From a candidate division FCPU426 bacterium (GTDB lineage: Bacteria > Oederibacteriota > PGYV01 > Palsa-1178), in the NCBI GenBank assembly GCA_963840035.1, contig CAWIXE010000001.1:352001-416000 (forward strand): a stretch of 64,000 nt of DNA. Reading direction: 5' to 3'. Within the stretch, counting starts at the first letter, position 1. Each line of letters begins with the position of its first letter. Both the position numbers and the translations under genes were made by a program. Shown one piece after another: positions 3,517 to 49,635 of the stretch. Under the pieces are notes generated by a model, which was given only the letters and a program-made list of their open reading frames with translations, did no database searches and was not told where the DNA came from.

Positions 3517-3679
3517 GTAGAGAGGGGGCTTGCCCCCTCTCAAACGCAGGCCTGCCTTGAGATCCAGCAAGCCGGCTCTCTACAGTTATATAAAACCACA
3601 ACAAAGTTCTCGTAGAGAGGGGGCTTGCCCCCTCTCCAGCGCAGGTCCTGCCCTGAGAGGCAGCAAGCCGCCTCTCTAC
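3517..3679. repeat. Two inverted GTAG-REP doublets downstream of the RAYT gene
   Basis: GTAG-AGAGGGGGC-TT-GCCCCCTCT ... AGAG-(t/g)CAGCAAGCCG-(g/c)CTCT-CTAC, present twice (3517-3583, 3612-3679). Confidence 0.9.
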
Positions 3680-4200
3680 AGGTTCTCTAACTTCTTCCGT
3701 TCCTCAAACAATTCATACCATTCCTTCTCTTCCATGCCGGGTTCATAAACCATTGGGTTGTTTAATATATACTCACTTGCAAAAAAATACTCAAATTCTC
3801 CCCGTATTATCCTGTCATAAAACCCTTCCTGCCAAAATTTCCTGCCGGGTTTCTGTTGTAATTTATTAATTGCTATCGTTGATTTTGATTTAAAAACGCA
3901 TATCATATCGTGGAGTGTTTTGCCTGTTTTCCTGCCAATCCGGATAATACCGTGCATATGATCCGGCATAAACATAAAATCGCCAAGAGCAATGTTTTCA
4001 AACTTACTTTTTAGTTCGATCCAGCATGCTGTTGCCGCCTTTCCGGCGTCTGACAAAAACATTTTTCGGTCTTTTATAGAACCAAAAAAGTTATGCCGTT
4101 TATCAAGACAGATGGTGACAGAATAATCCCCTTCCGATGAATAGTCATATTCTTTTAAATGATTTGATTCGATACGGTATTTGTTGTTGTAAAGCGACAT
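3676..4200 (-). mobile_element. REP-associated tyrosine transposase (RAYT/TnpA-REP, HUH Y1 family)
   Basis: YDYS..G.Y..TIC N-terminus, MPDHMHGII HUH motif, FWQEGFYDRIIR, catalytic YILNNP; REP doublets on both sides. Confidence 0.9.
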
Positions 4201-4408: not shown

Positions 4409-5476
4409 TTATTTAACTTCCGCCTTATACTTCACCAGCCGCTGTTTTTTCTTCCCTTCCAGCATCTCCAGCGCGAGCCTTCCTATGAACTCAGCTGGTA
4501 TTTCCAGGCATTCCTTGTAAATGTCCTTCCTGTTGCATATGGCAAGCCCGCACGGGCTGCATTTGACGTGCCTGTCTACTATTACGGCCTTGTCTCCCAT
4601 GGCTCCCCACTCCTGGTACCTTGCGGAACCGCTGAATATGGTGAGCGACTTTACGCCGAAAGCCGCCGCGATATGGACGGCCGCGGAATCATTACCTATG
4701 ACGAGAGAGGCGTGTTTTATAATGGCTTTCATTTCCTTTAAGTTGAGCATACCTGCCAGGTTTACCACGTGCCTGCCGCGTATCTTTTCTATGCCCCTGT
4801 CTTTTTTCCCGCCGACTACGACGGTCTTTATGCCGCGCGACATGAATTCAGCCAGGCTGTTGTACTTTTCCATGTCCCAGTCTTTGGACGTGTGCCCAGA
4901 GACAGGGTGCATGACTATGTATTTCGTGACTTTTCCTTTTTCAAGAAGGGCTTTTATGTTGTCTTCCGATACCTTATCTGTTTTAAGCGCTGTTTTTGCT
5001 GGAAGCTTTACGCCTGTTATTTCTTTTAGCAGGAGCATGTTTTTTTCCGCGGCGTGGGATGAGATCGGCGGGTGGCTTACAATATGGTTGATGCCAAACC
5101 CCATTTTGCCGGTATCGTATCCGTATTTGTCCTTTGCCTTTGCCATGGAGAGTATAAACGAAGTGAGCCTGTCCTGCCAGCGCATGCCAATTATCATGTC
5201 ATACTTTCCGGCGTTTAAAAGGGATATGAGTTTGAATGCGGAAAACCATCTTACGAAAAACGGCTTTGGCTCGTACTTAAGCCATTGCGCGTCAAATGTC
5301 TTAACTTCATCAAAACACCCGAGCCCGTCTAAAACCTGCGAGCCCGCGGGGCTTAAGAACGCGGTGATGTGGGCGTCCTTAAAATGTTTCCTCAGTCCCA
5401 AAAAAAATGGAGACGCAAGTACTGCGTCTCCGATACCGTCTGTTTTTATGACCGCGATGCGTAGCCTGTTTTCCAT
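4409..5476 (-). CDS. Glycosyltransferase family 9 (ADP-heptose:LPS heptosyltransferase-like)
   Basis: DGIGDAVL, HP..G..SKDW, IGNDSAAVHIAAA, CSPC motifs. Confidence 0.9.
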   Translation of the reverse strand: MENRLRIAVIKTDGIGDAVLASPFFLGLRKHFKDAHITAFLSPAGSQVLDGLGCFDEVKTFDAQWLKYEPKPFFVRWFSAFKLISLLNAGKYDMIIGMRWQDRLTSFILSMAKAKDKYGYDTGKMGFGINHIVSHPPISSHAAEKNMLLLKEITGVKLPAKTALKTDKVSEDNIKALLEKGKVTKYIVMHPVSGHTSKDWDMEKYNSLAEFMSRGIKTVVVGGKKDRGIEKIRGRHVVNLAGMLNLKEMKAIIKHASLVIGNDSAAVHIAAAFGVKSLTIFSGSARYQEWGAMGDKAVIVDRHVKCSPCGLAICNRKDIYKECLEIPAEFIGRLALEMLEGKKKQRLVKYKAEVK

Positions 5477-14632: not shown

Positions 14633-15394
14633 CTAAAAATTATACGACAAACTAACGCCGTTCATCGCGGGCGTAAATGATACGTTCTTGGGCATGTCAA
14701 GGTTGTTTATGACTTTTCCCGTCACAATACCTATCACCGCGCCCAGAAGCACGTCCGATGGCCAGTGCGCGCCCCTGTAGATACGCGCGATCCCTGTCAG
14801 CGCTGCGGCCGGATATGTGATCCATCCTATGTCATACCTGTCGCCAATTATCGTCGCGGCCACAAATGCCGTTGTGGTATGCCCCGAAGGATACGCCGCG
14901 TCGTCAAACGTAAACCAGGTGAATGCAAGTGAGTCGTCAGTCTGCGACGGCCTTTCCCTTCCGCAGATTATTTTTATTACGTTTGTAATGGCCCCTGCCA
15001 CCGCAAGCCCTTCAACCACGCTCACGGCGGTTTTCTTTTCTTTCTCCCCGCCGAGAGAAAATAAGAGGGCGTCCCCGGCAAGTACAGTCAGACCGTCGCC
15101 GCCGCGGTTGAAAATATCAAAAAAAGTGTCTTTAAATTTATTTGGCCCTGACCTTACTGTTTTTGATATCCACAAATCGTTTTTAATCAGAAGGTAAGTG
15201 GCCGCCCCGAACCCGGCCGTAATTAATCCTGTTTTTAAAGGGTCCTCAATCACCGCGCCGCCGATAGCCTTAAAATCATCAAAAAAAACGCGGTTCCATA
15301 TGGTATCCTCCGCGAAAACAGAAGAATAAAAAAACAATAAAACCAGTATTGTTATTATTTCATACTTCAGGATAGAAGCTCCGGACTTTTTCAT
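14633..15394 (-). CDS. PAP2-family phosphatase
   Basis: K....GRERP, YPSGHT, ARIYRGAHWPSDV motifs. Confidence 0.9.
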   Translation of the reverse strand: MKKSGASILKYEIITILVLLFFYSSVFAEDTIWNRVFFDDFKAIGGAVIEDPLKTGLITAGFGAATYLLIKNDLWISKTVRSGPNKFKDTFFDIFNRGGDGLTVLAGDALLFSLGGEKEKKTAVSVVEGLAVAGAITNVIKIICGRERPSQTDDSLAFTWFTFDDAAYPSGHTTTAFVAATIIGDRYDIGWITYPAAALTGIARIYRGAHWPSDVLLGAVIGIVTGKVINNLDMPKNVSFTPAMNGVSLSYNF

Positions 15395-15481
15395 TTGTTC
15401 TTTATGCCCCACTTTTGACTTTTGAGTTTTGACATTTGACTTTACCTGCAGCCCGCCACTCACTACCCACCACCCACTCCG

Positions 15482-20364: not shown

Positions 20365-20393
20365 TTGACATCCGCTATTAAATGGGTTATAAC
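20365..20393 (+). promoter_or_regulatory. Putative sigma70 promoter of the inositol-lipid cluster
   Basis: TTGACA-N17-TATAAC. Confidence 0.65.
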
Positions 20394-20448: not shown

Positions 20449-21066
20449 TTGCCAAAAGCAGGAAAAAGGGAAATTCGCTCCATTTTAAAGGATCTGAGCC
20501 AGAAAATCCTGGCTCCTGTTGTTGTTCTTTTAAAAAAAACAGGAATAACCCCTGACATCCTTACCTGGACAGGGTTCCTGCTGAACTTACCCGCGGTTTA
20601 CTTCATTATTAAGGGTAATTTCGCAATAGCCGCTCTCATAGTTCTTTTTGCCGCCATTTTTGACATGTTAGACGGCGCTTTAGCCCGCATGGGAAACATG
20701 AAGACCAAATTCGGCGGGTTTCTTGATTCTACGGTGGACAGGTTTATAGAGGGAATTTTGTACTTCGGACTTCTTGTATACTATATTGAAACCGGAAATA
20801 AATACGGCATCATGTTAAGTTACGCGGTGTTGTTCTTTTCCTTTCTTGTCAGCTATTTGCGGGCAAGGGCCGGAGGGCTTAAGATTGACTGTGAAGTCGG
20901 GATCTTTACGCGGCCTGAAAGGCTTGTTGTTCTTATATTAGGGCTTCTTTTTAACCTGGTTTTTTATGTGCTGGTTATACTGGTTGTGGCGTCGTTTATC
21001 ACCGCGGTACAGCGCATGATGCTTGTTTATGCTGAGGCCAAAAAGTTGGATAAAAAAAGGAAATAA
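20449..21066 (+). CDS. pgsA: CDP-alcohol phosphatidyltransferase, probable phosphatidylinositol-phosphate synthase
   Basis: TPDILT, DMLDGALAR...FGGFLDSTVDR, VSYLRARA, TRPER; adjacent to ino1; TTG start after AAGGAG. Confidence 0.85.
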   Translation: MPKAGKREIRSILKDLSQKILAPVVVLLKKTGITPDILTWTGFLLNLPAVYFIIKGNFAIAALIVLFAAIFDMLDGALARMGNMKTKFGGFLDSTVDRFIEGILYFGLLVYYIETGNKYGIMLSYAVLFFSFLVSYLRARAGGLKIDCEVGIFTRPERLVVLILGLLFNLVFYVLVILVVASFITAVQRMMLVYAEAKKLDKKRK

Positions 21067-21081
21067 TTTCAAGGAGGGTTT

Positions 21082-22167
21082 TTGAAGATGGAAAAGAAGA
21101 AAATCAGACTCGCGATTGTCGGACTCGGAAACTGCGCCTGGTCTCTTATGCAGGGGCTGGAGTACTATAAAAACGTAAAAGATGACGCGCAGATACAGGG
21201 ATTAATGCACGCCAACCTCGGCGGTTACAGGATTAAGGACATAGAACTTGTGGCCGCGTTTGATGTTGATTCCAATAAGGTCGGTAAGGACGCCAAAGAA
21301 GCCCTTGAATCACCTCCGAACAATACCATTGAATTCGCGAAATTAAAAAAGACCGGGGTTAAGGTCATGATGGGAAAGACCCTGGACGGCCTCGGCAAAT
21401 ATTACAGGACCGTCGTAAAAGAAGCCACGGCAAAACCCGTTGACATAGCAAAAACATTAAAAAAAGTTAAGGCTGATGTCCTCGTATCATACCTCCCTGT
21501 CGGCTCGGAAAAAGCCGTTAAATTTTACGCTACCGAATGCCTGAAGGCAAAGGTCGCTTTTGTAAACGCCATCCCGGTTTTTGTCGCCTCAAACCCGGAA
21601 TGGGCTGAGAAATTCAAAAAAGCCGGCGTGCCTATTATCGGCGACGACATCAAGTCGCAGGTCGGCGCCACCATAGTACACAGGGTATTAACGCAGCTGT
21701 TCGGAGACAGAGGCTGCAAGATTTACAGGACATACCAGATAAACTTCGGCGGCAATATGGACTTCATGAATATGCTGGAGAGGGAAAGGCTTTACTCCAA
21801 GAAAATATCCAAGACTAACGCCGTGCTAAGCCAGATGCAGAACCCGATAAACGCCGCGGAAGACGTCCACGTCGGCCCGAGCGACTACGTGCCGTGGTTA
21901 AAGGACAGGAAATGGTGCTATATAAAGATAGAAGGCTCCAATTTCGGCGAAGTTCCCATCGACATAGAGCTAAAGCTTGAGGTCTGGGATTCCCCCAACA
22001 GCGCCGGAGTTATCATTGACGCTGTAAGATGCGCGAAGATCGCCCTGGACAGGAAGATCGGCGGCATACTTGAAGGCCCTTCGGCGTATTTCATGAAAAC
22101 GCCTCCCAAACAGTACAACGACTCAAAAGCAAAGCAAATGGTCGAGGACTTCATTAAGGAAAGATAA
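21082..22167 (+). CDS. ino1: myo-inositol-1-phosphate synthase (short, actinobacterial/archaeal-type)
   Basis: [47 protein letters not shown]. Confidence 0.96.
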
Positions 22168-23034
22168 ATGTACATACTGCTCAAACTCACAGAGCTGATA
22201 ATACAAAATATCCCGCGTAAAGCGGGATATTTTATTTTTACCGTTTTTTCAAAAATGTCATTCATCTTTAACAAAAAACGCAGGGAGACTCTCCGGGAAA
22301 ACTTGAGCGCAGCCATCGGCGCGGATAAAGTAGATGACGCGCTCTTAAAAAAGGTATTTGTCAATTACGGCAAGTATTACTGCGACCTTTTCATGAAAAC
22401 CACCAGCCTGCAGGCCTATATCCCGGCGGAGTGCGGCAATTATTTTCGTGACACCATTGTTCCCGTTGTAAATTCATACCTTACCAAAGGGCGCGGCGTT
22501 ATTTTTGCGTCCATGCATTACGGCAGCTGGGACATAGCCGGCAGTTTTGCCGCCGGGTACTTTAAGGGAAAGCTCAATGTTGTTGTTGAAAAGCTCTCAG
22601 GCGGTATGTTTAAATGGTTCATGGAGAAACGCGGCGTCCTGGGCATGAAGCCGATCGAATCCACCGACATCAAATCCATGATCAGGGTTTTAAAAGCCGG
22701 CGAAATACTCATCTTAATGGCCGACCGCGACCTGGACAAACGCGGCTATAAAATGGATTATTTCGGGAAGAAAGCGTGCATCCCCAGCGGCCCGGCGAAG
22801 ATATCGTTAATGGCTAAAACCCCGATATTCATAGGCGTGGCACCGAGGGATAAGGACGATAACTTCTGGCCAATGCTTAACATACCGCCGATTAACGCGG
22901 AATGCGTCGAAAGGTCGGAAGAAGCGGCGGAAAACATAACAAAACAGCTTGTCGCCGCGATGGAGAAGTTCGTAAGAAACGACCCGTCACAGTGGTGTAT
23001 GCTGCAGGAGGTCTTTGTAAAGGAAGATAAGTAA
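22168..23034 (+). CDS. PatA/LpxL-family lysophospholipid acyltransferase (copy 1)
   Basis: HYGSWD (H-x4-D), ADRD, YFG, P.GPA, DPSQW. Confidence 0.85.
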   Translation: MYILLKLTELIIQNIPRKAGYFIFTVFSKMSFIFNKKRRETLRENLSAAIGADKVDDALLKKVFVNYGKYYCDLFMKTTSLQAYIPAECGNYFRDTIVPVVNSYLTKGRGVIFASMHYGSWDIAGSFAAGYFKGKLNVVVEKLSGGMFKWFMEKRGVLGMKPIESTDIKSMIRVLKAGEILILMADRDLDKRGYKMDYFGKKACIPSGPAKISLMAKTPIFIGVAPRDKDDNFWPMLNIPPINAECVERSEEAAENITKQLVAAMEKFVRNDPSQWCMLQEVFVKEDK

Positions 23035-23109
23035 TAGAAAAACGGAGCTGGATTATCACTTCTCCTGTCTCCAATCTCTTGTCTCTTAACCTCTAAGGAG
23101 CAACAACTT

Positions 23110-24249
23110 TTGACAAAAAGTAAAAGTTTTAAAAAAATAGCCATAGTAACGCCGTACTACTACCCGCTGTTTGGCGGCGTACAGGAGTATGTCTATCACT
23201 TAAAGAAAGAATATAAAAAACTCGGCTACTATGTCCGCGTTATAACCGGCACTTTTAAGAGGGAGCACAGCAAGGACGAGAACGAGGTCCTTCGCATGGG
23301 GCTCGGCGTGCCGATAAAGTTTAACGGCTCGGTAGGCAGGATCATCATGATACGCCGCGGTGAAAAGGTCAGGCAGACCCTTGATTATTATAACTTTGAC
23401 ATCATCCACCTCCAGGAACCCTTTGTTCCCTTCCTTTCGCACGACGTTATTAAGTATTCAAAAGCCGTCAATGTCGCCACCTTCCACGCCAATTTTGAGA
23501 CAAACTTCTTTTACAGCTTTGGCAGGGTTTTCCTCCTGCCTTTGTGGGACAGGCTTGCCGGCAGGATAGCTGTATCGCCTTCGGCTAAATCAAGCATTAC
23601 CAAATATTTCAGCGGCAAAGATGTTGAAATAATACCCAACGGCGTTGACACTTCCCGCTTCACGCCTAAAAACAAAAAGATAAAGAGATTTGATGACGGT
23701 ATGACAAATATTCTTTTTACAGGCAGGGTGGAAAAACGCAAAGGCCTGATATATCTGCTCCAGGCTTTCGGCGGGTTAAAGAAAAAACACCCGAAGATAC
23801 GCCTTATAGTCGTAGGCAGGGGCCCTCTTTTAAAGCATCACAAAAAATATGTAGAAGACAATAAAATCAAAGACGTCCACTTCGAGGGTTTTGTTCCCAT
23901 AGACGACCTTCCGCGTTATTATTCCACGGCCGACATCTACTGCTCCCCGGCTTTATTCGGGGAATCATTCGGCATAGTCCTGCTTGAGGCCATGGCCTCG
24001 GCGGTTCCTGTTGTGGCTTTCAACATAAGCGGGTATAATGACGTGGTCTCGAACTTAAGCGACGGCCTGCTCGCCGAGCCGCGAAACATACACGACCTGG
24101 CAGAAAAGCTGGAACTGCTTATAACCGATAAGAAACTGCGGCGCACTCTCGGGTCAAACGGCCTGAAAAAAGCGCGCAAATTCACATGGAAAGAGATAGC
24201 AGCGCGCAACATTGCGTATTATAAAAAACTCTGGGAGAACAAAAAATAA
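23110..24249 (+). CDS. pimA: GT4 glycosyltransferase, PimA-like (phosphatidyl-myo-inositol mannosyltransferase)
   Basis: PYYYPLFGGVQ, FNGSV, HLQEP..P, VATFH, RIAVS, IPNGVD, RKG, GESFGIVLLEAMA. Confidence 0.8.
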   Translation: MTKSKSFKKIAIVTPYYYPLFGGVQEYVYHLKKEYKKLGYYVRVITGTFKREHSKDENEVLRMGLGVPIKFNGSVGRIIMIRRGEKVRQTLDYYNFDIIHLQEPFVPFLSHDVIKYSKAVNVATFHANFETNFFYSFGRVFLLPLWDRLAGRIAVSPSAKSSITKYFSGKDVEIIPNGVDTSRFTPKNKKIKRFDDGMTNILFTGRVEKRKGLIYLLQAFGGLKKKHPKIRLIVVGRGPLLKHHKKYVEDNKIKDVHFEGFVPIDDLPRYYSTADIYCSPALFGESFGIVLLEAMASAVPVVAFNISGYNDVVSNLSDGLLAEPRNIHDLAEKLELLITDKKLRRTLGSNGLKKARKFTWKEIAARNIAYYKKLWENKK

Positions 24250-25118
24250 TGTATTACATCCTCCGCTTTGCCACCTGGTTCATCTGCCTTTTCCCCATTA
24301 AGCCGCTTTACGCATTCGCCGGCTGGGCCACTAAAATAGTTTTTAAGTTCTGGAAGGAAAAACGGGAAAACATCCATAGAAATTACTCCGTGATTCTGTC
24401 AAAAAAGTACGGAAGGCCGGCCACTGGAGAAGAGATTAATGCCGTAATGGAGGATAACTACATCAACTACGGCAAGTTCAATGTAGAGTTCCTCTATATG
24501 AACAAGCTGATAAAAATGTCAAACCTTCCGCCCGCAAGGAATATTGAGCGCATTGACGAAGGCTTAAAACCCGGCAAAGGCCTCATGATATGTACCCTTC
24601 ACTTTTCCAACTGGGACGTGGCAGGCGCCATCATATCCGGCCATTATAAAGATAAATGCGAAGTCTGGGCCATAGCCGACGACTTAGGCGGCGGTTATTC
24701 AAAGTTCATCCAGGATTCCAGAAACCGCTACGGCATCAAGATAGTTCTGGGTAACAAGAACATAAAAGACGCCTACGGCTGCTTAAACAGGGGCGGCATA
24801 TTGAACGTGCTCTTAGACAGGCCATTGCCCCGCACAGACAAAAGCGGCGTTGAAGTGGAATTCTTCGGCAAAAAGATATGGGTAGCCTCCACAGCCGCCC
24901 GCATAGCCCTTAAAACAGGCTGCAGGATGTTAGTAGGCTACGCAGTAAGGGAAGGCATGTCCTTCTACGGCCAGCCCGGCCCGCTGCTGGAATACACCCT
25001 CACAGGCGACAAAGACAAGGACGTCCAGATAATCACCCAGTCAGCCATGAGAGACGCGGAAAAACTCATCATGGACCACCCGGAACAGTGGTATATGTTC
25101 AGGAATATGTGGACTTAA
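24249..25118 (+). CDS. PatA/LpxL-family lysophospholipid acyltransferase (copy 2)
   Basis: HFSNWD, LLDRP, GVEVEFFGK, HPEQWYMFRNMW. Confidence 0.85.
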   Translation: MYYILRFATWFICLFPIKPLYAFAGWATKIVFKFWKEKRENIHRNYSVILSKKYGRPATGEEINAVMEDNYINYGKFNVEFLYMNKLIKMSNLPPARNIERIDEGLKPGKGLMICTLHFSNWDVAGAIISGHYKDKCEVWAIADDLGGGYSKFIQDSRNRYGIKIVLGNKNIKDAYGCLNRGGILNVLLDRPLPRTDKSGVEVEFFGKKIWVASTAARIALKTGCRMLVGYAVREGMSFYGQPGPLLEYTLTGDKDKDVQIITQSAMRDAEKLIMDHPEQWYMFRNMWT

Positions 25119-25255
25119 AACAAATTTTCAATTCTAAATTTTCAATTTTCAATTAAATTCTTGCGTTTTAATAATCGCACTGTATAATGTCTTTTGTTAT
25201 TATTTGTTATTAATTGAAAATTTAAAATATAAAATTGAAAATCGGAAGGTTGACA

Positions 25256-25984
25256 ATGCCAAAAAAAGTATTTAAAAACAACAAACTACCAAAAGGTTTT
25301 TCAAAGGCCGACTACCACATCCACACCTCCATAGGCGACGCGGTAATGACGCCTCAGGAGCTGGTTGACTTCTGCGAGCATAAGACCGACTTAAAAGTAA
25401 TCGCCGTCACAGACCACGACCAGATAAAAGGGGCCATAGAGGCTCAGCAGTACGCCAAAAAGAAAAAGTACAAGCTGGAAGTCATAGTGGGTGAGGAAGT
25501 CTCCACACTTAAAGGCCACCTCATAGGCCTCTTCATGAAACAGCGCATCAGAAGGTACACGACGCTCCCCAAAACCATAAAGATGATACACGAACAGGGC
25601 GGCATAGTCATAGTCCCCCACCCATTGTCATGGTTGACCACCAGCGTGGGTGAGATGGCCTTCAGGCAGATAATAAAGTCAAAGGATCCCAACATATATT
25701 TCGACGCTGTAGAATTAATAAATCCGGCGATAGCCGGGAAGATAACGGACGGAAAGGCTCAGAAACTTAACGATAAAGTTTGGAAACTCCCCGTCACAGG
25801 CGGCTCAGACGCCCACTCCATAGACGGCATAGGCTCAGCATACACAATCTTCAAAGGCAAAACCGCCGAAGACTTCCGCAAAGCGATCTTAAACGGCACA
25901 ACCACATACGGCGGTTGTTACTGGAACTTCAGGGAGCATTGGGATTTGTTTGTGGAAAAATTTAAAAAGTTTAAAGTTTTTTAA
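25256..25984 (+). CDS. PHP-domain metal-dependent phosphoesterase
   Basis: DYHIHT, TDHD, GEEVST..GHL, PHP, GGSDAH metal-ligand motifs. Confidence 0.88.
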   Translation: MPKKVFKNNKLPKGFSKADYHIHTSIGDAVMTPQELVDFCEHKTDLKVIAVTDHDQIKGAIEAQQYAKKKKYKLEVIVGEEVSTLKGHLIGLFMKQRIRRYTTLPKTIKMIHEQGGIVIVPHPLSWLTTSVGEMAFRQIIKSKDPNIYFDAVELINPAIAGKITDGKAQKLNDKVWKLPVTGGSDAHSIDGIGSAYTIFKGKTAEDFRKAILNGTTTYGGCYWNFREHWDLFVEKFKKFKVF

Positions 25985-26701: not shown

Positions 26702-26759
26702 GGTTTTATGAATTGTCTTCCTCCTAAACCCCTAATCCTTACCCTTATGTTCCTGCCTT

Positions 26760-27792
26760 GAGACGCAGACAAGCTGCGTCTCTACAATGGTTGTAAATAT
26801 TTCAGCTGTGAAAACCCGTAGAGACGGGACCCGTGCCCGTCTCCGCGCTGCTGCGTTGCTGCCCTGAGACGCAGACAAGCTGCGTCTCTACAGTGTGCGT
26901 AAATATTTCAGTTCTTAAAACCCGTAGAGACGGGACCCGTGCCCGTCTCCGCGCTGCTGCGTTGCTGCCCTGAGACGCAGACAAGCTGCGTCTCTACAGT
27001 GGTTATAAATATTTCAGCTGTAAAAACCGTAGAGACGGGCCTTGTGCCCGTCTCCACGCTGCTGCGTTGTTGCACTGAGACGCAGACAAGCTGCGTCTCT
27101 ACAGTGGGTGTAAATATTTACAGCTGTTAAACCCGCAGAGACGGGACCCGTGCCCGTCTCCGCGCTGCTGCGTTGCTGCCCTGAGACGCAGACAAGCTGC
27201 GTCTCTACAATGGGTGTAAATATTTACAGCTGTTAAACCCGTAGAGACGGGACTCGTGCCCGTCTCCGCGCTGCTGCGTTGCTGCCCTGAGACGCAGACA
27301 AGCTGCGTCTCTACAATGGTTGTAAATATTTCAGCTGTTAAAACCGTAGAGACGGGACCCGTGCCCGTCTCCGCGCTGCTGCGTTGCTGCCCTGAGACGC
27401 AGACAAGCTGCGTCTCTACAATGGTTGTAAATATTTCAGCTGTGAAAACCCGTAGAGACGGGACCCGTGCCCGTCTCCGCGCTGCTGCGTTGCTGCCCTG
27501 AGACGCAGACAAGCTGCGTCTCTACAATGGTTGTAAATATTTCAGCTGTGAAAACCCGTAGAGACGGGACCCGTGCCCGTCTCCGCGCTGCTGCGTTGCT
27601 GCCCTGAGACGCAGACAAGCTGCGTCTCTACAATGGTTGTAAATATTTCAGCTGTTAAAACCGTAGAGACGGGCCTTGTGCCCGTCTCCGCGCTGCTGCG
27701 TTGCTGCCCTGAGACGCAGACAAGCTGCGTCTCTACAATGGTTGTAAATATTTCAGCTGTTAAAACCGTAGAGACGGGCCTCGTGCCCGTCT
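26760..27792. repeat. BIME-like tandem array: 10 units of 105-106 bp, each with two inverted GTAG-REPs
   Basis: GAGACGCAGACAAGCTGCGTCTCTAC at 26760, 26866, 26972, 27077, 27183, 27289, 27394, 27500, 27606, 27711, alternating with GTAGAGACGGG..CCCGTCTC. Confidence 0.95.
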
Positions 27793-27900
27793 AAACCCCG
27801 GATCGATCCAGACCCCCACGAGGGGCGTCTCTACGAATCTCTTGCATTTTCCTGTCACCTGCAATATAATACATTCATATTAAACAAACGGGGAGATTAT

Positions 27901-38640: not shown

Positions 38641-41511
<2,871 letters not shown>

Positions 41512-41515
<4 letters not shown>

Positions 41516-41793
41516 TGCCTCATCCTGCATATGATTTCCGTGACGGTTTCTTTCCTGAAATAATTGTTAATTTTCTTCATTAATGCCCGTTTTTTATATG
41601 TTATTTCACTCATTATAACACTATTCTCAGCGTAAATAAATAGTTTCTTTTTATCGTATTTAAAAGGCTTTGTGCCTTTTGCCAGCATGCCAGCGACCGC
41701 GTCCCATTTATCAAATATTACCCCGCCGGCGTCCTCCTTGCCTATCTCGTTTTTCTTAAGGAAACCTTCCAACAGATTTTTAATATGGTCCAT
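41512..41793 (-). CDS. dciA: DUF721 / DciA-family helicase-operating protein
   Basis: I..LL, W..VAG, L.I...NS....E......L..KIN pattern; location in the dnaA-gyrB region. Confidence 0.7.
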
Positions 41794-43183
41794 TTAAGCC
41801 TTTTGCGTCGACAAAAAACGGCGTATCAAAGTACAGGTTCCCTGAAAGCGTGACAAGGGGGTATAAAAAAGCCCCGTTATTCGGCAGGACACAGTTAAAT
41901 GTGCCTTCCAGTTTCAGTGAAAAGAACTTCACAGGATAGTATTCAAGGCCGATTCCGCCCTGCGCCGCCAGGCATGGCTGGTTGTTCTTTTTTGTGGTCC
42001 CGTCGCTGAACTTGAACTCTTCCGACAATATTGCAAGCCCGAGCCCTATTTTTCCATATGGTATCAGGAACGCATTTTTTTTATATCCAAAATACCCGTA
42101 GCCGCAAAAAAGCAGGTCATATATGCTTACCGAGTGCCTGTATGTGTCTCCTTCTGTCTTGGAAAGCCATACTCCGCCAAGGTCAAGGCCGAAAAGGAAG
42201 GCCCCGGTTATACTGCATGTGAAAGTGCCGTTAACACTCAAACCCAGTGCGGCGTCTTTCTGCACACGCGGCGGCGTCAGCGGCATGACGGCGTTAAACG
42301 CGCCGCCGACGCTGACCCTGGATGGCTCTTCGTCCGGCCTTTTTAAATTCAGGTAAATCTTAACCAGCGATATGAACGCGTCCGTGGGTTCCCACAGCTT
42401 GAAAGGCCCCTTGGAATACGGTTCAAAGACCACCTTACCGGCTTTTTCGTTATTCTTTTTGTCAAAGATGAATTCATTTATTCCTTTTACTTCCGAGTAT
42501 CCCCAGTAATTTTCTTTGGCATCAACATCCCAGGCCGAGTAATTTGTCAGGTTTACCTGGTTTTTGAAAAAATTATTGTTTTTTATAAGCATCTGGGCTT
42601 TTGGTATGTCCTTTAAATATACCGCGAACCTTCCGTTATTAAATGTATTTTGCTCTATGGTAAATTTCATCTCTTTTCCTTCGGCATAAACCCCGTAAGT
42701 GTCGTTATAAAAATAATTATCCTTGATAAGGGCGTTTGAAAAATGAAACAGTTCTATGCCGGTGGAATTAAGGATGTAGTTATTTGTTATTATTATGTTG
42801 CTGCCTTCACAGGATATGGCGCCTCTGATCATTATTGTAAACTCAATGGTGTTTTTGTAGCGGCTCTCGAACCTTATGCCGTCATAGAAACTCTCGCCGT
42901 CAAAAGGAAGCATTCGGACCGGATTTTTCGGATCGCCCTTGGAATAAAGCGCGCCCTTTACCAGAATTTTTGAGTCTTTTTTGAATTTTACCACAGTTCC
43001 GGGATAAATTTTCAGGAAACCTTTTTTATCAATGGTTAAGGTTCCGTCTACAATATACGGGGAATTTTTAGGGGTCCAGTTTTCCGTCTTATCTATGAGG
43101 GAAGGGGCATTCGTTTCGCCATACGCGCTGCCGCATATTAAAATTATGGCCAGGCTAAAAACTATCGCCTTGAAATTTTTCAA
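41780..43183 (-). CDS. Secreted parallel beta-helix protein with C-terminal outer-membrane beta-barrel-like domain
   Basis: Signal peptide, WT..NSPYIVDG.LTI, I.PGT.VKF, Asn ladders, DA..NYWG; C-terminal PY...GLG / GG.GLEY strands. Confidence 0.65.
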   Translation of the reverse strand: MKNFKAIVFSLAIILICGSAYGETNAPSLIDKTENWTPKNSPYIVDGTLTIDKKGFLKIYPGTVVKFKKDSKILVKGALYSKGDPKNPVRMLPFDGESFYDGIRFESRYKNTIEFTIMIRGAISCEGSNIIITNNYILNSTGIELFHFSNALIKDNYFYNDTYGVYAEGKEMKFTIEQNTFNNGRFAVYLKDIPKAQMLIKNNNFFKNQVNLTNYSAWDVDAKENYWGYSEVKGINEFIFDKKNNEKAGKVVFEPYSKGPFKLWEPTDAFISLVKIYLNLKRPDEEPSRVSVGGAFNAVMPLTPPRVQKDAALGLSVNGTFTCSITGAFLFGLDLGGVWLSKTEGDTYRHSVSIYDLLFCGYGYFGYKKNAFLIPYGKIGLGLAILSEEFKFSDGTTKKNNQPCLAAQGGIGLEYYPVKFFSLKLEGTFNCVLPNNGAFLYPLVTLSGNLYFDTPFFVDAKGLNGPY

Positions 43184-43197
43184 AACTTCACCCCTGT

Positions 43198-45733
43198 TTA
43201 TCCGACGCCTTTGTCATCTTCCAGGTCAGGCAGCGGAGGAAGTTCGTCCGGAAGCTTTAAATCCTCTTTTTTCGCGGCCGGAGGCGCGGCTGGTTTGCCC
43301 ATAAGTTCCGGAGGCACTACCGTCCCCTTGCCTGGCAGCTCAACTTTTTTTGAATTCATTGACATGGCGTCAAAATTTAAAAGGTCATTTACCGTGGGAA
43401 GCTTTTCATCCGGTTTCGCTGCCGGGGCGGCCATTGGTGTGTCCATGGCATTTCTCTGAATTTTAAAGCCTCCCTGCTCGGGCTGCCGGGGAGTTGCTTC
43501 AGCGGCCTGTGGAAGCGGCTTAATTGCCGCGTCCGGCTGTGAAAGACCCGATGGCTTCGGCCCCTCGGGCGGCTTTATCGCGGCCGGTTTTCCGGTATCA
43601 GCGGAAGATTTCGGAAGCGATATGACAAATGTCTTTCCTTTTCCTATTTCAGATTCTATTGTTATTTCGCCGCCCATGTTATTTACAATGGCTTTTATTA
43701 TGGGGAACCTTAAACCGCTGTTTACAAACTCAGGGCCTGCTCCGGATTCCGGCCCGTGGAAATTAACGAAAAGGACGCCCGCTTTTGACTGCGGCATGGA
43801 CATCCCGAAATCACTCACCCTTATTATTACGTTTTTGCCGTCTTCCTTTGTCTCCACCAGCACCTGTCCGCCCCTCGGCGATACCTTAATGGCCTGGTTT
43901 AAAAGCTGGCTTGTAACGCTGGATAACCTGCCGGAATCCCCGAACGCCGTGGGCAGTGTCGGCGAAAAATTCACTTTCATATCGACTTTTTTAATATCAG
44001 CCTGGGGCTGTATCGCGAATATGACATCCTGTATCACGGTGTTGATCTCAAGCGGCTGCCTGCCGAGTTTTATCTCCCCTTTTTCAAGCCTTGCCAGCTC
44101 CGTTAAGTCATTGATCAGCCTTTCCAGCCTTGCCGATTTATTTATGACAACCCCGAGAAACTGCTGCTGCGCGTCGGTTATCTTTCCTTCGCCGCCGAGC
44201 ACAGAGGAAATATATGTTTTAATGACGGATAAAACTCCCTTTAATTCGGTATTCATCATGAGGACCGAGTCCATCCTCATATTTTCCTTTTCAACAGGCA
44301 CTTTTGATTCCTGGGCTTTTTTGAGTTCCTGTTTTTCCTTATCAAGGGCTTTTTCAGCGGCCGATAATTTCGCCGCCCAATCCGCCTTTTCAGACTCAAG
44401 TTTTTGCTCCGCTTCCTTTTTAACCTTCGGGACCTCGGATTTTAATTTTGCTATCTCATCCTCAAGTGCTGCCTTGCCGTTCTCTGCGATCTTAATGGCG
44501 TCGCGAAGTTCGGATATTTCCATGTCTGATTTTGACGCTTCCTTTGAGAGTTCTTCTTCGCTTTCCTTGAGCATGGCGGAAAGCTTTCCCGCCTTTTCTT
44601 CCGAGGACTTCACCCTTCCTCCGAGTATGACAAGGGAGTCAAGAAGCTTCTTATACTCGCCTTTTTTTATCTTCGGAAGAAGTTCCTGGAAGCTCGCTTC
44701 ATCTATGTGAGTTAAAGCTTTTACTATCCTCTTAAGCGGGGCGTAAGGCTCGGCGCTGATTGAAAAAACCATTATAAGCGCCAGCAGCAGGACTGCCGCG
44801 AGTATCGCGTAAACCGGGGCGATAAGCGATGTGTCCATAAATACCATCTGTTCTGTTTTCGGGTTTGTCCTTATTGATTTGTAATCCGCGTATGGGGTAA
44901 ATACCAGTATTACCATTTCAAGGGCTTCCTGTGTCTTATAACCCAGGCTTCCCTTCAGGCCGTTATACTGCCCTTCCTTGACGTTCTTTCCGGTCTCATC
45001 CTCGTTTACCGCGGCTTTTATGTCCGCGTTTGAGAAGCACGTTTTCAGTGTTTTCCTTGGAAGCGTCTGAATTTAGAAGCACTGACCCGGAAGTGTTCAC
45101 TATCATGTTCACTCCGTTTTTGGATATGACGCTTTTTCTCATTGCGTTGGCTTTTTCCGATATGTCTGATTTTACATAAAGAACCGCGGCCAGCTTGTCC
45201 TTGGCGTCAAAGATAGGAACAAAATACTCCGCCGTGCCGGCCGTAAAGTTTATTTCAAATATCGCGTTTTTGGACGATGTAGCCTGTATGAATTTTGTGT
45301 TTGATTTAAGGTTAATGGCTTTCAAGGTATCCTTGTTTGCCTCAACCACGTTTCCGGCGGGCAATAAAAGGGCCATATCTTCTTTCATAAGTTTCGCGGT
45401 CTTTAAGAAAACCGCTTTTACTTTCTGGGCCTGGTCTTTCTTTGAAAAATTCGCGGTTTTGATGGTTTTATCATTGATAATTCCGGCGTATTTTTTAAGG
45501 GCTGTTCCGGGGTTTAACTCCTCAACCTGCCTGCTTAACTCATCCACCTTATTCAACACCTGAGAGTTCACCACGTCTATTTCCTTTACATTGTCCGCGT
45601 AAAGAACCCGCTGTTTCATGTTATTGATGGACGCCACCCTTTTGGCGTCAAAATGGTACATGAGGTATACCGGTACGGCAAATACCAGTATTATAAGAAA
45701 TATTACCTTTGTCAAAAGGCTTGACTTGTTCAT
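43198..45733 (-). pseudogene. Frameshifted sensor-histidine-kinase-like gene (periplasmic Cache-like domain, coiled coil, degenerate HisKA/HATPase)
   Basis: ORFs 44996-45733 and 43198-44916 join by removing one base near 45030-45075 (continuation NADIKAAVNEDETGK...EMVILVF); H-box reads MNTELKGVL. Confidence 0.7.
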
Positions 45734-45759
45734 TATGGATCCTCCTGCGGGGAAAAAAC

Positions 45760-48234
45760 TTATTTAGCTTTTTCTTCTCCGCTATCTGTTTCTTCTTCTT
45801 CCACTACGCGGGCGACCGCGCCGACAGCCTCTCCGTCTTTGAGCTTTATGAGGCGCACTCCCTGCGTGTTTCTTCCTATTGTTTTGATGTCCTTAATCTT
45901 TGTCCTTATCAGCGTCCCTTTGGTGGTAATCAGTATGAGCTCATCCGTGTCGCTGACAAGCTTTATGTCGACCACGCTTCCGGTCTTGTCGGTTACTTTT
46001 ACGTTAATGAGCCCTTTTCCGCCGCGGCTCTGTTCCCTGTACTCCTTTACCTTTGTCCTCTTGCCGAACCCTTTTTCTGTGACAGTAAGGAGCGTTACGT
46101 CCTTATCTTCGGAATGCAGTACGGTCATGGAAACAACCTTGTCCTTCTTGTCGAGGTTGATGCCGCGCACTCCCATTCCTGTCCTTCCTATCTCCCTGAT
46201 ATCCTTGGCGTCAAAGCGTATGGCCTTGCCTTCGCTTGTGGCTATGAATATCTGGTCCTGCACCTTTGCCAGCTTTGTCTCTATCAGGGCGTCGCCTTCG
46301 CTTAAACCTATGGCAATGATGCCGCCGGAGCGCGGATTGGCAAAGAGCGACAGGTTTGTCCTCTTTACCGTCCCGTCCTGCGTGACCATCAGCAGGAACT
46401 GGTCATCCTTAAAATCCTTTACCGCGACATAAGCCGCTATTTTTTCGCCGTCCTCAATTTTAATCATGTTTACTATTGCCTTGCCCTTGGCAGTCCTTGC
46501 CGCCTCGGGTATCTCGTAAACCTTAAGCCAGTGGCAGCGGCCTTTGGAGGTAAAGAACATCATGTAATCGTGGGTATTGGCCACGAAGACATCCTGGACA
46601 AAATCCTCATCCTGCGTGGTGACGGCTATGATTCCCCTGCCGCCGCGCTTCTGGGCTTTGTATGAAGTGGACGGTGTCCTTTTGATAAACCCTTTATGGG
46701 TCATGGTCACTATCATGTCCTCTTCCTGTATCATATCCTCAACCGTGAGCTCTTTTTCTTTTTGTATTATTTCCGTCCTGCGCGGGTCCGCGAACTTGTT
46801 CTTTATGTCAAGAAGCTCAACCGTGATAAGCGCGAGCATTTTCTTTTCGCTTGCCAGCAGCGACTTTAATTCCTCAATGAGTTTTTTCAGCTCCGCGAGT
46901 TCTTTCTCGATCTTCTCGACTTCAAGGGCAGTTAACTGCTGCAGTTTCATGTCGAGGATGGCCTGCGCCTGTATCGGCGTGAGTTTGAAAGTCTTAATCA
47001 GCCCTTCTTTTGCCTCTTCCACATTATCGGAAGCCCTGATGAGCTTTATTACCCTGTCAAGGTACTTTAAGGCAATCAGCAACCCTTCAAGTATGTGGGC
47101 GCGTCTCTCTGCCTTTTTCAGTTCGAACTTTGTCCTTCTTATGATAACTTCTTTCCTGAACTCGATAAAGTTCTGGAGCACTTCCTTTAGTGAAAGGGTC
47201 TTCGGCCTGCCGTTGACCAGCGCTAGCATGTTAATACCGAACGTCGTGCGCATTACCGTATGCTTGTAAAGCTGGTTTAAGATAACTTCCGCGTTGTCGT
47301 TCCTGGATATTTCAACGACCGCCCTTACTCCGTCCTTGTCAGACTCGTCGCGCAGGTCTGTTATTCCCTCTATCTTTTTATCGCGCACCAGGTCTGATAT
47401 GGTCTCAAGCAGCTGCGCTTTATTTACCATGTAAGGAAGTTCTGTTATGACTATCTGCTGCTTTCCTTTTTTTGTTTCCTCTATCTTGACCTTTGACTGC
47501 ATGGTAATGGAGCCGCGCCCGGTTTCATACGCTTTTTTGATGCCTTCCCTGCCGATAATATACGCTCCCGTCGGAAAATCAGGGCCGCTTACTATCTTTA
47601 AAAGGTCGTCTGTCTTTATATTTTTGTCCTTGTTTTCTATTATATATATAGTGGCGTCAATTATCTCTCCCAGGTTATGCGGCGGTATGTTTGTGGCCAT
47701 GCCGACAGCGATGCCTGATGAGCCGTTAACCAGCAGCTGAGGGAACCTTACCGGAAGTACCGTGGGTTCCTTTCCTGATTCGTCATAGGTCGGGATAAAG
47801 TCAACGGTGTCCTTATCAAGGTCTTTTATAAGCTCTTCCGTTATCTTCTGCATCCTTGCTTCCGTATAACGCATGGCCGCGGGCGGGTCTCCGTCGACGG
47901 ATCCGAAATTTCCCTGTCCGTCAATCAAAGGCATCCTGAATGTAAAAGTCTGCGCCATCCTGACTAACGCTTCGTAAATGGATGAGTCTCCGTGCGGATG
48001 GTAATTTCCCATCACTTCTCCGACTATCTTCGCGCATTTCCTGTAAGGCTTTCCATAATATAATCCCACATCATAAGTTGAAAAAAGTATCCTTCTCTGT
48101 ACGGGCTTTAAACCGTCGCGTACGTCGGGAAGGGCCCTTCCAACGATAACTGACATGGAGTAATCGAGATATGATGTCTGCATCTCGTCTTCCAATATTG
48201 CCGGCTGTATCCTGGAAATTATCTGTTCATCCAT
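45760..48234 (-). CDS. gyrA: DNA gyrase subunit A
   Basis: RALPDVRDGLKPV, YHPHGD, AAMRYTEAR, GyrA-box QKRGGRG, C-terminal pinwheel repeats. Confidence 0.97.
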   Translation of the reverse strand: MDEQIISRIQPAILEDEMQTSYLDYSMSVIVGRALPDVRDGLKPVQRRILFSTYDVGLYYGKPYRKCAKIVGEVMGNYHPHGDSSIYEALVRMAQTFTFRMPLIDGQGNFGSVDGDPPAAMRYTEARMQKITEELIKDLDKDTVDFIPTYDESGKEPTVLPVRFPQLLVNGSSGIAVGMATNIPPHNLGEIIDATIYIIENKDKNIKTDDLLKIVSGPDFPTGAYIIGREGIKKAYETGRGSITMQSKVKIEETKKGKQQIVITELPYMVNKAQLLETISDLVRDKKIEGITDLRDESDKDGVRAVVEISRNDNAEVILNQLYKHTVMRTTFGINMLALVNGRPKTLSLKEVLQNFIEFRKEVIIRRTKFELKKAERRAHILEGLLIALKYLDRVIKLIRASDNVEEAKEGLIKTFKLTPIQAQAILDMKLQQLTALEVEKIEKELAELKKLIEELKSLLASEKKMLALITVELLDIKNKFADPRRTEIIQKEKELTVEDMIQEEDMIVTMTHKGFIKRTPSTSYKAQKRGGRGIIAVTTQDEDFVQDVFVANTHDYMMFFTSKGRCHWLKVYEIPEAARTAKGKAIVNMIKIEDGEKIAAYVAVKDFKDDQFLLMVTQDGTVKRTNLSLFANPRSGGIIAIGLSEGDALIETKLAKVQDQIFIATSEGKAIRFDAKDIREIGRTGMGVRGINLDKKDKVVSMTVLHSEDKDVTLLTVTEKGFGKRTKVKEYREQSRGGKGLINVKVTDKTGSVVDIKLVSDTDELILITTKGTLIRTKIKDIKTIGRNTQGVRLIKLKDGEAVGAVARVVEEEETDSGEEKAK

Positions 48235-48266
48235 TTATGTTATTCTCCGTTCAATTTGTAAAATTA

Positions 48267-49373
48267 TTATTTTCTGATGGGCATTACTATGTAGAGGTAC
48301 TCGTCGTCGCCTTTTGCCTTCATGACGCCCGGATTCATCGAGCTTATTAATTTTAATTCCACTGAATCGGTTTCAACCACTTTTAATACATCCATAATAT
48401 AAGCGGCGTTATATGAGACTTCTATGGGCTCGCCGTCATATTTTATGTCTATTTCTTCCATGCCCTCTCCCTCATCCTGGGCCTGCGAAGTAATGGTAAG
48501 CTTATTTTTTTCAAGTTTTAAAATTACAATCTTTGACTTATCGGAAGTGATAGTGGCTGCCCTTCTTACGGCCGACGCCAGGTCTTCTTTTCCTATTATG
48601 GCTTCCATGGAAAATTCCTTTGGTATGACCTGGTTATAGTTGGGGTAATTCTCGTCTATTATCCTTGAGACAATGTCGATATTTTCGAGCTGAAATTCTA
48701 TAACCTTGTCATAAAAATTAATTGTAAGTTCTTTTTTCTCGTCATCCGATAAAACTTTCGCGATCTCATTTATGGTGCGCAGCGGTATGATATATTCAAA
48801 TTTTGATTTGAGCCCCGATTTTATCTCTGTCTTGCAGTAAGCCAGCCTGTGAGCGTCTGTGGCAACTGCTTCTATCTTGTTATTTTCAAATTTAAAAAAT
48901 ACCCCGTTTAAATTTCTTTTTGAAGTATCTTTTAACGCCGCGTAGGATATCCTCGCTATTATGGTCTTTAATAATTTCTGCGGTATTTTTAATGTCTCAA
49001 GCTTTTTTTCATCAGGCTGAAGAACGGGAAAATCCTCCGCTGGAAGGCCGTTAATTTTATATGAGGCTTTTTTGCATACCACTTTTGTATTATCGCTTTT
49101 ATCAGTCTCTATTTTTATATCATCATCTGTAAATTCTTTTATAAGCGCTATGATCTTTTTTGGTATGGTTGTTTTTCCGGGCTGTTCTATTTTTTCAACT
49201 TTGCATTTAATCCTGACTGATATATCCATGTCTGTGGCCGAGAGATAAAGAAAATCATTATCAGCTTCAAATAATATGTTCGATAACAGTGGTAATGTCG
49301 CTCCCGTCGATATAAAATACTGGGCAATCTGCAGGGACTCCAGGATCTCGTTCTTTTTTGTCTTTAATTTCAT
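48267..49373 (-). CDS. dnaN: DNA polymerase III beta sliding clamp
   Basis: SATD, ATDAHRL, YPNYNQVIP, YIVMPIR; directly after dnaA. Confidence 0.96.
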   Translation of the reverse strand: MKLKTKKNEILESLQIAQYFISTGATLPLLSNILFEADNDFLYLSATDMDISVRIKCKVEKIEQPGKTTIPKKIIALIKEFTDDDIKIETDKSDNTKVVCKKASYKINGLPAEDFPVLQPDEKKLETLKIPQKLLKTIIARISYAALKDTSKRNLNGVFFKFENNKIEAVATDAHRLAYCKTEIKSGLKSKFEYIIPLRTINEIAKVLSDDEKKELTINFYDKVIEFQLENIDIVSRIIDENYPNYNQVIPKEFSMEAIIGKEDLASAVRRAATITSDKSKIVILKLEKNKLTITSQAQDEGEGMEEIDIKYDGEPIEVSYNAAYIMDVLKVVETDSVELKLISSMNPGVMKAKGDDEYLYIVMPIRK

Positions 49374-49379
49374 GTACTC

Positions 49380-49635
49380 CTCCTTTTAATTTGTCCACAT
49401 TTTTTGGTTTACAACAGTAATAATACTCTTATGTATATATAAAGATTGTTGCTGTTGTTGTACTGTTAATTACCTTAATAACTTTAAAGTTCCTTAAAAA
49501 AATAGCTTATTTAAACCTTATTAATGTTAATTATAGCTATATTTTAATACATAAAGGGCTATTTATCCACAATAAACTTAAGGCTGAATTTATTATCAAC
49601 AGCCCATAACAGGGTAATACACATACTATTAACAG
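49380..49635. other. Probable oriC (dnaA-dnaN intergenic part)
   Basis: DnaA boxes TTGTCCACA 49391-49399, TTATCCACA 49563-49571, TTATCAACA 49593-49601; very AT-rich, with trinucleotide runs (GTTGCTGTTGTTG, GTAATAATA). Confidence 0.8.

Follow-up and report, generated by a model that had tools for sequence, protein, structure and literature searches.

Glycolipids of the phosphatidylinositol mannoside (PIM) type are treated as an actinobacterial trait. Here we describe a cluster of six genes at positions 20449-25984 of a 64,000-nucleotide stretch of DNA (hereafter the window; positions 352,001 to 416,000 of contig CAWIXE010000001.1, assembly GCA_963840035.1) from a candidate division FCPU426 bacterium. 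The pathway it is predicted to encode is a genuine, conserved variation on the early PIM pathway, found in a lineage that bears lipopolysaccharide (LPS) genes. The cluster encodes a phosphatidylinositol phosphate (PIP) synthase-like enzyme, the inositol-phosphate synthase Ino1, two acyltransferases (AT1 and AT2), a PimA-like glycosyltransferase of family GT4, and a stand-alone PHP-family protein. Its product is probably an acylated monoglycoside of phosphatidylinositol (PI), of PIM1 type and likely mannosyl, made at the inner face of the cytoplasmic membrane, with the PHP protein as the likely PIP phosphatase. The new content lies in the PHP protein as a PIP-phosphatase candidate, strengthened by its fusions to degenerate PimA domains, and in AT2 as a putative member of a second PatA-related subfamily.

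In the proposed pathway, Ino1 would, by its family, make inositol phosphate, and the CDP-alcohol transferase, recognized by family and motif, would join this presumed substrate to CDP-diacylglycerol to give PIP. The PHP protein would then strip the phosphate from PIP to leave PI, a step that gene context makes fairly likely. The GT4 enzyme, judged by clade and residues, would add one hexose to the inositol 2-OH, and we consider it quite likely that this sugar is mannose. AT1, which keeps the relevant PatA residues, would acylate the 6-OH of the sugar in the manner of PatA, and AT2 may attach a further acyl chain to that lipid, at a different hydroxyl. This second acylation is slightly more likely than not, and the inositol ring as its specific target is less likely than not.

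All six genes are intact, plus-strand open reading frames (ORFs), and the Pfam and NCBIfam family calls agree with every gene label, which confirms the first-pass annotation of six co-oriented, mostly tightly packed genes. The PIP synthase scores 149 bits with NF040950 and 145 bits with NF045883, versus 29 bits with PgsA, and carries the CDP-alcohol transferase signature DxxDGxxAR..GxxxDxxxD as given in PMC6506517. Ino1, a single-copy gene in this genome, scores 536 bits with TIGR03450. The best match of the GT4 enzyme in the PDB is PimA (E 6e-44), followed by MshA-type enzymes (4e-18) and PimB' (3e-14). In a 50-row tree (all trees in this work are quick trees with Shimodaira-Hasegawa-like approximate likelihood ratio test (SH-aLRT) support) it falls in the PimA clade (SH-aLRT 99), nested inside Chloroflexota homologs (SH-aLRT 99). 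Among the ten critical PimA residues taken from PMC9202250, nine are kept (Y9, Q18, N63, R68, H118, R196, E199, R201 and E274), and the tenth, Y62, is phenylalanine. The phylogeny proposed earlier for this gene, against PimA, PimB' and MshA, thus groups it with PimA. For mannose-1-phosphate guanylyltransferase (Man-1-P GTase), the genome holds two best matches of mycobacterial type (312 and 279 bits; cut-off, 440), and a search of the genome for an enterobacterial-type ManC found none.

Two sets of observations weigh against this assignment. The PIP synthase scores lie below the curated cut-offs of 180 and 170 bits, as do those of Ino1, PatA and Man-1-P GTase below theirs. Moreover, the guanine contacts of PimA, D253 and K256, are not kept in the GT4 enzyme, which reads GFVPIDDL where PimA homologs read GQVDDAEK, so its donor could be a UDP-sugar. 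When the genome was queried with PimB', the best match was just the PimA-like gene (95 bits), and no PimB' ortholog was found. The pathway should therefore stop at one sugar, giving a PIM1-type lipid rather than the PIM2 series or Ac2PIM2. What is supported from the first-pass annotation, on the families, clades, residues and gene context, is a PIM-like pathway outside Actinomycetota in a bacterium with LPS genes.

The order AT1-GT4-AT2-PHP is intact in all 20 loci fetched from relatives of the same order, and all six genes are present in 17 of them, the remaining three running into contig edges. This order is not due to chance. An AT2 ortholog occurs in 21 of 24 genomes of the order (this one included) and in none of the 17 other genomes searched in the phylum; the PimA-like gene has the same distribution (21/24 and 0/17), and Ino1 is found in 22/24 and 4/17, respectively. 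Among the same-order relatives, the PHP protein is 61-76% identical, above either acyltransferase. Two genomes of the phylum (loci L371 and L372) have ino1 directly after lpxL-lptC-lptA-lptB and before an S1/P1 nuclease-family gene; in L371 (5139-10700), a PIP synthase accompanies ino1 in this lpt-adjacent insertion.

The cluster is not unique to this lineage, for it is widespread in Chloroflexota. Among 121 Chloroflexota genomes, 112 carry the PIP synthase type, 94 a PimA-like gene and 86 a PF03279 (acyltransferase) gene; 83 of these 86 also have a PimA-like gene, and 63 have two PF03279 copies. Of 20 Chloroflexota loci chosen for a linked PHP gene, 16 hold the full six-gene set, including at least two acyltransferase genes, in orders that differ from that of the window, e.g. 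ino1-AT-AT-PHP-GT4-PIPS (PIPS, PIP synthase). Small Chloroflexota genomes (L287, L288 and L290) carry ino1-GT4-PIPS without an acyltransferase, or ino1-PIPS alone, as natural truncations of the pathway. In the trees, the GT4 and PHP proteins of the window nest among Chloroflexota rows. Given this nesting and the patchy distribution within the host phylum, the cluster likely reached an ancestor of this order by an ancient transfer out of Chloroflexota. Diol-based inositol mannosides and acyl-mannosides have been described from Thermomicrobia; literature searches on inositol-mannoside lipids of Chloroflexota or Thermomicrobia turned up no paper on them.

The two acyltransferases differ in the motifs that face the acceptor. 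The best PDB match of AT1 is PatA (E 4e-17, versus 4e-7 for a lipid A acyltransferase), and it scores 140 bits with NF005919, below the curated cut-off of 209 bits. Its residues H117, D122, E141, R155 and D186 align with H126, D131, E149, R164 and E200 of PatA, the roles of which are taken from PMC4792965. D186 opens a DRD motif; DRD, E141 and LQ are present in all 11 AT1 rows, and H284 is cysteine. AT2, which is 25% identical to AT1, also has better profile matches with PatA (1e-15) than with lipid A acyltransferase (2e-11). Its predicted model has a predicted local distance difference test (pLDDT) score of 94, and the catalytic residues H118, D123, R158 and D190 are kept. The acceptor-side motifs of PatA are missing from it: in 11 of 11 rows, E149 is replaced by D, DRD by DRP and W.MLQ by WYMFR. 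A PatA-type glutamate at AT1 position 141 is found in 11/11 AT1 rows, 18/18 PHP-proximal Chloroflexota copies and 20/20 actinobacterial PatA proteins, mostly together with DRD. Among the Ino1-proximal Chloroflexota copies, 12 of 18 read FR and none carries DRD, features shared with AT2. By these characters, AT1 is assigned to the PatA type and AT2 to a second PatA-related subfamily common to Chloroflexota. In two loci of Actinomycetota (L243 and L244), tandem, highly divergent PF03279-like genes lie beside a GT4 gene, unrelated to the patA locus.

An alternative is that AT1 and AT2 share the PatA reaction at the sugar 6-OH and differ in their acyl chains or donors, in which case the product would be monoacylated with no second site. 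This is rather unlikely in our estimate. It would fit the Chloroflexota clusters that have a single acyltransferase of either type and the inositol-mannoside and acyl-mannoside lipids described from Thermomicrobia, and it would fit the trees of 116 and 48 rows, in which AT1 and AT2 are sisters (SH-aLRT 99 and 98, with composition warnings), a grouping that also weighs against the main reading. On the other side stand the change of acceptor-side motifs in every AT2 row, as in most Ino1-proximal Chloroflexota copies, the retention of two copies in 63 of the 86 Chloroflexota genomes, and the fact that the test does not reject a tree uniting AT1 and PatA with the PHP-proximal Chloroflexota copy (p 0.56). 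In a 27-row tree, moreover, AT2 joins the Chloroflexota AT2 type (SH-aLRT 99). We keep to two acylations at different hydroxyls as the slightly favored reading.

The PHP protein has the HxH, DH, E, H, H and DxH elements of the PHP fold, its predicted model (pLDDT 91) retrieves PHP proteins in a fold search, and its metal ligands (D19, H21, H23, D28, D53, H54, E81, H88, H122, D185 and H187) are invariant in 22 of 22 aligned rows. The protein is basic, with an amphipathic C-terminal helix and no predicted transmembrane segment. Profile and fold comparison found no close characterized PHP relative. In 34 of 37 loci titled Chloroflexota, the gene is a neighbor of GT4 or PIP synthase; six of these, from Ktedonobacteraceae, read PHP followed by PIP synthase and contain no GT4 gene. 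Linkage also tracks the profile score: among the 150 of 184 matches that were listed, a PIP synthase lies within 6 kb (<=6 kb) of 29 of 36 matches of at least 250 bits, 4 of 39 at 200-250 bits, 0 of 16 at 160-200 bits and 1 of 59 at 130-160 bits. As most rows behind the profile (14 of 22) are themselves linked, this trend is partly circular; related genomes, moreover, are not independent cases.

Fusions point in the same direction. Seven longer relatives of the PHP protein are GT4-PHP fusions, one of them named Solirubrobacteraceae, and actinobacterial fusion loci read PIP synthase, ino1 and GT4-PHP fusion in six of six cases. The fused glycosyltransferase half is PimA-derived and keeps the acceptor-side motifs, having lost those of the donor side: the GG pair and an intact ESFG are gone in 13 of 13, the RK pair is kept in three, and the equivalents of R196 and E274 are kept in one. 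The fused PHP half keeps HxH, (D/E)H, GEE, HP and SDxH, with Glu in place of His88. A separate PimA-like gene is present in four of five genomes with a fusion. The fused domain is thus likely a pseudo-glycosyltransferase, and we infer that it looks like a lipid-binding module. The loci with PIP synthase and no GT4, together with the fusions, indicate that the PHP protein follows PI synthesis more than glycosylation. The fusion PHPs stand on a different branch (SH-aLRT 95) from the clade of Chloroflexota and the window lineage, and unlinked PHPs occur on both; this suggests either two recruitments to PI genes or one old link with losses.

Several observations weigh against a role of the PHP protein in PI synthesis. 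A linked PHP gene is present in only 34 of the 112 Chloroflexota genomes with PIP synthase. In 20 PHP-less clusters, no clear replacement phosphatase was found among the 52 of 153 listed flanking ORFs that were scanned. One genome (G156) has a 301-bit PHP protein and ino1 with no PIP-synthase match, and Coriobacteriia, Patescibacteria and some Chloroflexota carry close PHP relatives that lack the linkage. In one of the PHP-less Chloroflexota clusters (L263:174-1886), ino1 is preceded by a gene of the phosphodiesterase/nucleotide pyrophosphatase family and by one for an ArsR regulator; upstream ORFs of similar size in L266, L268, L269, L278 and L290 lay outside the scan for replacements and could hide a substitute. 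Related PHP genes are also found after B12 radical SAM and class I/II aminotransferase genes in L109, L111 and L112 (Coriobacteriia/Actinomycetota), possibly in another lipid pathway, and more distant ones lie directly after LytR-CpsA-Psr genes in L311-L315 (several Actinomycetota).

These points bear on a second alternative, in which the PI glycolipid is made but the PHP protein acts on a soluble inositol phosphate, a cyclic phosphate or a nucleotide, or recycles lipid, while PgpA or a PAP2 or HAD enzyme dephosphorylates PIP. We regard this as rather unlikely. The absence of a linked PHP gene from most Chloroflexota genomes with PIP synthase would agree with it, as would the lack of a predicted transmembrane segment and the fact that the substrates of characterized PHP relatives are RNA ends or nucleoside bisphosphates. 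The known bacterial PIP phosphatase belongs to the PgpA family (PMC9246714), and the genome has both PgpA and PAP2. The PAP2-family gene (14633-15463, minus strand of the window), an alternative lipid phosphatase, follows proA and a cytidylyltransferase-like gene and lies roughly 5 kb upstream of the cluster. However, pgpA in this genome lies outside the cluster and adjoins the other CDP-alcohol transferase gene, pgsA. Equally, loci without GT4 keep PHP beside PIP synthase, and in the fusions its partner is a PimA-derived domain with acceptor-side motifs kept and donor motifs lost. Its linkage to PI genes recurs on two distinct branches of its tree, and the protein is basic with an amphipathic C-terminal helix. 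The PHP protein, found beside inositol-lipid genes in three phyla, is the best PIP-phosphatase candidate and likely performs this step. The first-pass annotation had named it for the PIP-to-PI step and had called for a synteny survey; gene context and fusions make it a good candidate, and both it and the second acyltransferase prove to be co-conserved with the PimA-like gene in the 20 relative loci, with ino1 and PIP synthase as well in 17 of them, and with the rest of the set in 16 of the 20 chosen Chloroflexota loci.

The host also carries a separate set of genes for LPS. LpxC is present elsewhere in the genome, as is a run of SIS-CBS, HAD, lipid A acyltransferase, LptC, LptA and ABC genes. 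The acyltransferase gene of that lptCAB run is the third PF03279 gene of the genome; it adjoins lptC/lptA, a context for which it is taken as the lipid A late acyltransferase. It has the DQD and W.W.H.R motifs of the lipid A type, which forms a third type in the motif counts and separates from AT1 and AT2 in three trees (SH-aLRT 97, 100 and 99). Against this separation, approximately unbiased (AU) tests do not reject the placement of AT1 (p 0.38) or AT2 (p 0.054) with lipid A-type rows, so the trees alone do not settle the depth of the split. A reading of AT1, AT2 or both as lipid A late acyltransferases that merely lie in the operon is nonetheless very improbable: it would agree with the PF03279 membership of both, the LPS genes of the host, the AU tests, and the similar scores of AT2 on the PatA (81.3 bits) and lipid A lauroyltransferase (80.9 bits) models, but a dedicated lipid A-type copy adjoins lptC/lptA, AT1 and AT2 score only 35 and 28 bits with E. 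coli LpxL versus 93-140 bits, in the best cases, with Chloroflexota copies, and the same pair occurs in Chloroflexota, a phylum not known to have LPS. A lipid A role was accordingly rejected on context, motifs and scores, although the AU tests do not reject it. Both enzymes are nearer to PatA than to LpxL/LpxM, as first proposed, in PDB and profile matches, scores, motifs and trees, with the AU values as a reservation.

Compared with the mycobacterial pgsA1-patA-pimA locus (PMC8519569 and PMC4792965), the cluster likewise groups a PIP synthase, a PatA-type acyltransferase and a PimA-like GT4 enzyme with catalytic residues kept, and it differs by the addition of ino1, a second acyltransferase subfamily and PHP. 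It differs as well in that no PimB' was found in the genome, that the host has LPS genes, and that its scores fall below the curated cut-offs. The inositol lipid cluster of Bacteroides thetaiotaomicron (PMC9246714) similarly co-encodes Ino1, PIP synthase and a phosphatase, and makes PI via PIP. Its PIP phosphatase, BT_1525, is of the PgpA family and genetically supported, whereas the candidate here has a PHP fold, and glycosylation and acylation of PI are predicted to follow. In mycobacteria, EphE (Rv3670/MSMEG_6184) was proposed as the PIP phosphatase, without direct biochemical proof (bioRxiv 10.64898/2026.07.15.738315). Like EphE, which is linked to PimA, the PHP protein is a candidate for the PIP-to-PI step; unlike it, EphE is an alpha/beta-hydrolase, predicted to form a complex with PimA.

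The stand-alone PHP phosphoesterases (TM0559, RNase AM, nucleoside 3',5'-bisphosphate phosphatase and HisK) share with the window protein the PHP fold and a full set of metal ligands, but it is only about 15-23% identical to them and scores far below their cut-offs. None of these four is known to act on a lipid. Literature searches, in which subscription journals were mostly outside coverage, found no paper proposing a PHP enzyme as a PIP phosphatase, or PIM genes in Goldiibacteriota.

The second mycobacterial acyltransferase, which makes Ac2PIMs, was still unidentified in 2026 according to PMC13223929, and is predicted to be periplasmic, unlike PatA (PMC9490103). Like that enzyme, AT2 may acylate a PI mannoside a second time; unlike it, AT2 is PatA-related. 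The first-pass annotation held that neither the inositol acyltransferase nor the PIP phosphatase of mycobacteria was firmly identified. The first part stands, while for the second a bacterial PIP phosphatase is known in BT_1525 and EphE has been proposed. To weigh AT2 and PHP for these gaps, tallies were made over 121 Actinomycetota genomes, including four flagged unpublished (G166, G213, G251 and G281). A PatA-model match is present in 80 of the 121, nearly always single. The AT2-type profile matched the same places in 77 and, compared by eye with the PatA matches, revealed no extra gene in the 121 genomes; the PHP profile matched 16 of the 121, none at the patA locus. With neither patA-linked nor second copies there, PHP and AT2 probably do not fill the mycobacterial gaps. 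The identification of AT2 with the mycobacterial Ac2PIM enzyme, or of PHP with the mycobacterial phosphatase, is thus unsupported, and the suggestion that these extra genes are the missing mycobacterial enzymes is unlikely to hold.

The features of the cluster are listed in Table 1. The ino1 and AT1 genes abut and GT4 and AT2 overlap by 1 nt, with gaps of 75 nt between AT1 and GT4 and 137 nt between AT2 and PHP. The last gap is much shorter in most same-order relatives and holds an inverted repeat whose arms are 91% complementary and built of TTTTCAA-type units. The GC content of the six genes (0.43-0.49) matches that of the genome (0.47), which is 3.46 Mb and 98% complete. The promoter described earlier as consensus is present and matches 11 of 12 consensus positions, the final T of the -10 box being C; for lack of that T, it was not listed by the consensus scan. 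The cluster is indeed divergent from lepB/hemN upstream, as claimed, but it is convergent with hsp20 downstream. A GT9 gene is present, as stated, and lies at 4409-5476; the barrel proteins reported with it are unconfirmed by Pfam, several ORFs of the window having no family.

Table 1. Features of the inositol-glycolipid gene cluster (window coordinates)
Feature	Position	Strand	Basis
Likely sigma70-type promoter	20365-20393	+	TTGACA-17 nt-TATAAC, read from the sequence
PIP synthase-like CDP-alcohol phosphotransferase, 205 aa	20449-21066	+	PF01066; TTG start behind AAGGAG
Ino1, myo-inositol-phosphate synthase	21088-22167	+	PF01658; alternative TTG start 21082
AT1, PatA-type acyltransferase (HYGSWD)	22168-23034	+	PF03279; PatA best PDB match
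PimA-like GT4 glycosyltransferase	23110-24249	+	PimA best PDB match; PimA clade
AT2, second acyltransferase, PatA-related subfamily (HFSNWD; DRP and WYMFR motifs)	24249-25118	+	PF03279; profile matches; motifs
Inverted repeat, AT-rich, 33 bp, in the AT2-PHP gap	25124-25242		Arms 25124-25156 and 25210-25242
Stand-alone PHP-family metallophosphoesterase, candidate PIP phosphatase, 242 aa	25256-25984	+	PF02811/PF13263

Elsewhere in the window, 26749-27835 is taken up by roughly 10 repeat units, each 105-106 nt long with short palindromes, which resemble repetitive extragenic palindromic (REP) elements, and an IS200-like transposase fragment lies at 3676-4200; a tie between the two is a guess. On the minus strand at 38641-50979, the order is dnaA-dnaN-gyrA ... 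gyrB, with gyrA ahead of gyrB and unrelated genes between them.

The boldest form of our proposal is that PHP-fold enzymes represent a new class of lipid phosphatase, serving as the PIP phosphatase in Goldiibacteriota, many Chloroflexota and some deep Actinomycetota, linked to PI genes on two branches and, in one lineage, brought to the membrane by a catalytically dead PimA domain, and that the DRP/WYMFR type is the first identified bacterial inositol-ring acyltransferase, yielding a tetra-acylated PIM1 in an LPS-making bacterium. We consider this combination unlikely. More broadly, the cluster predicts PIM-type glycolipids in most of the Chloroflexota sampled and in a candidate phylum that bears LPS genes. 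The finding will probably not lead straight to the identity of the missing mycobacterial enzymes. AT1 and AT2 form a ready pair with which to learn how PatA-family enzymes pick their acceptor hydroxyl. Moreover, with one PIP-to-PI enzyme supported (the PgpA type of Bacteroides) and one proposed (EphE), a small, soluble PHP protein would, if the assignment is true, represent a third, unrelated and easily assayed solution to the same step.

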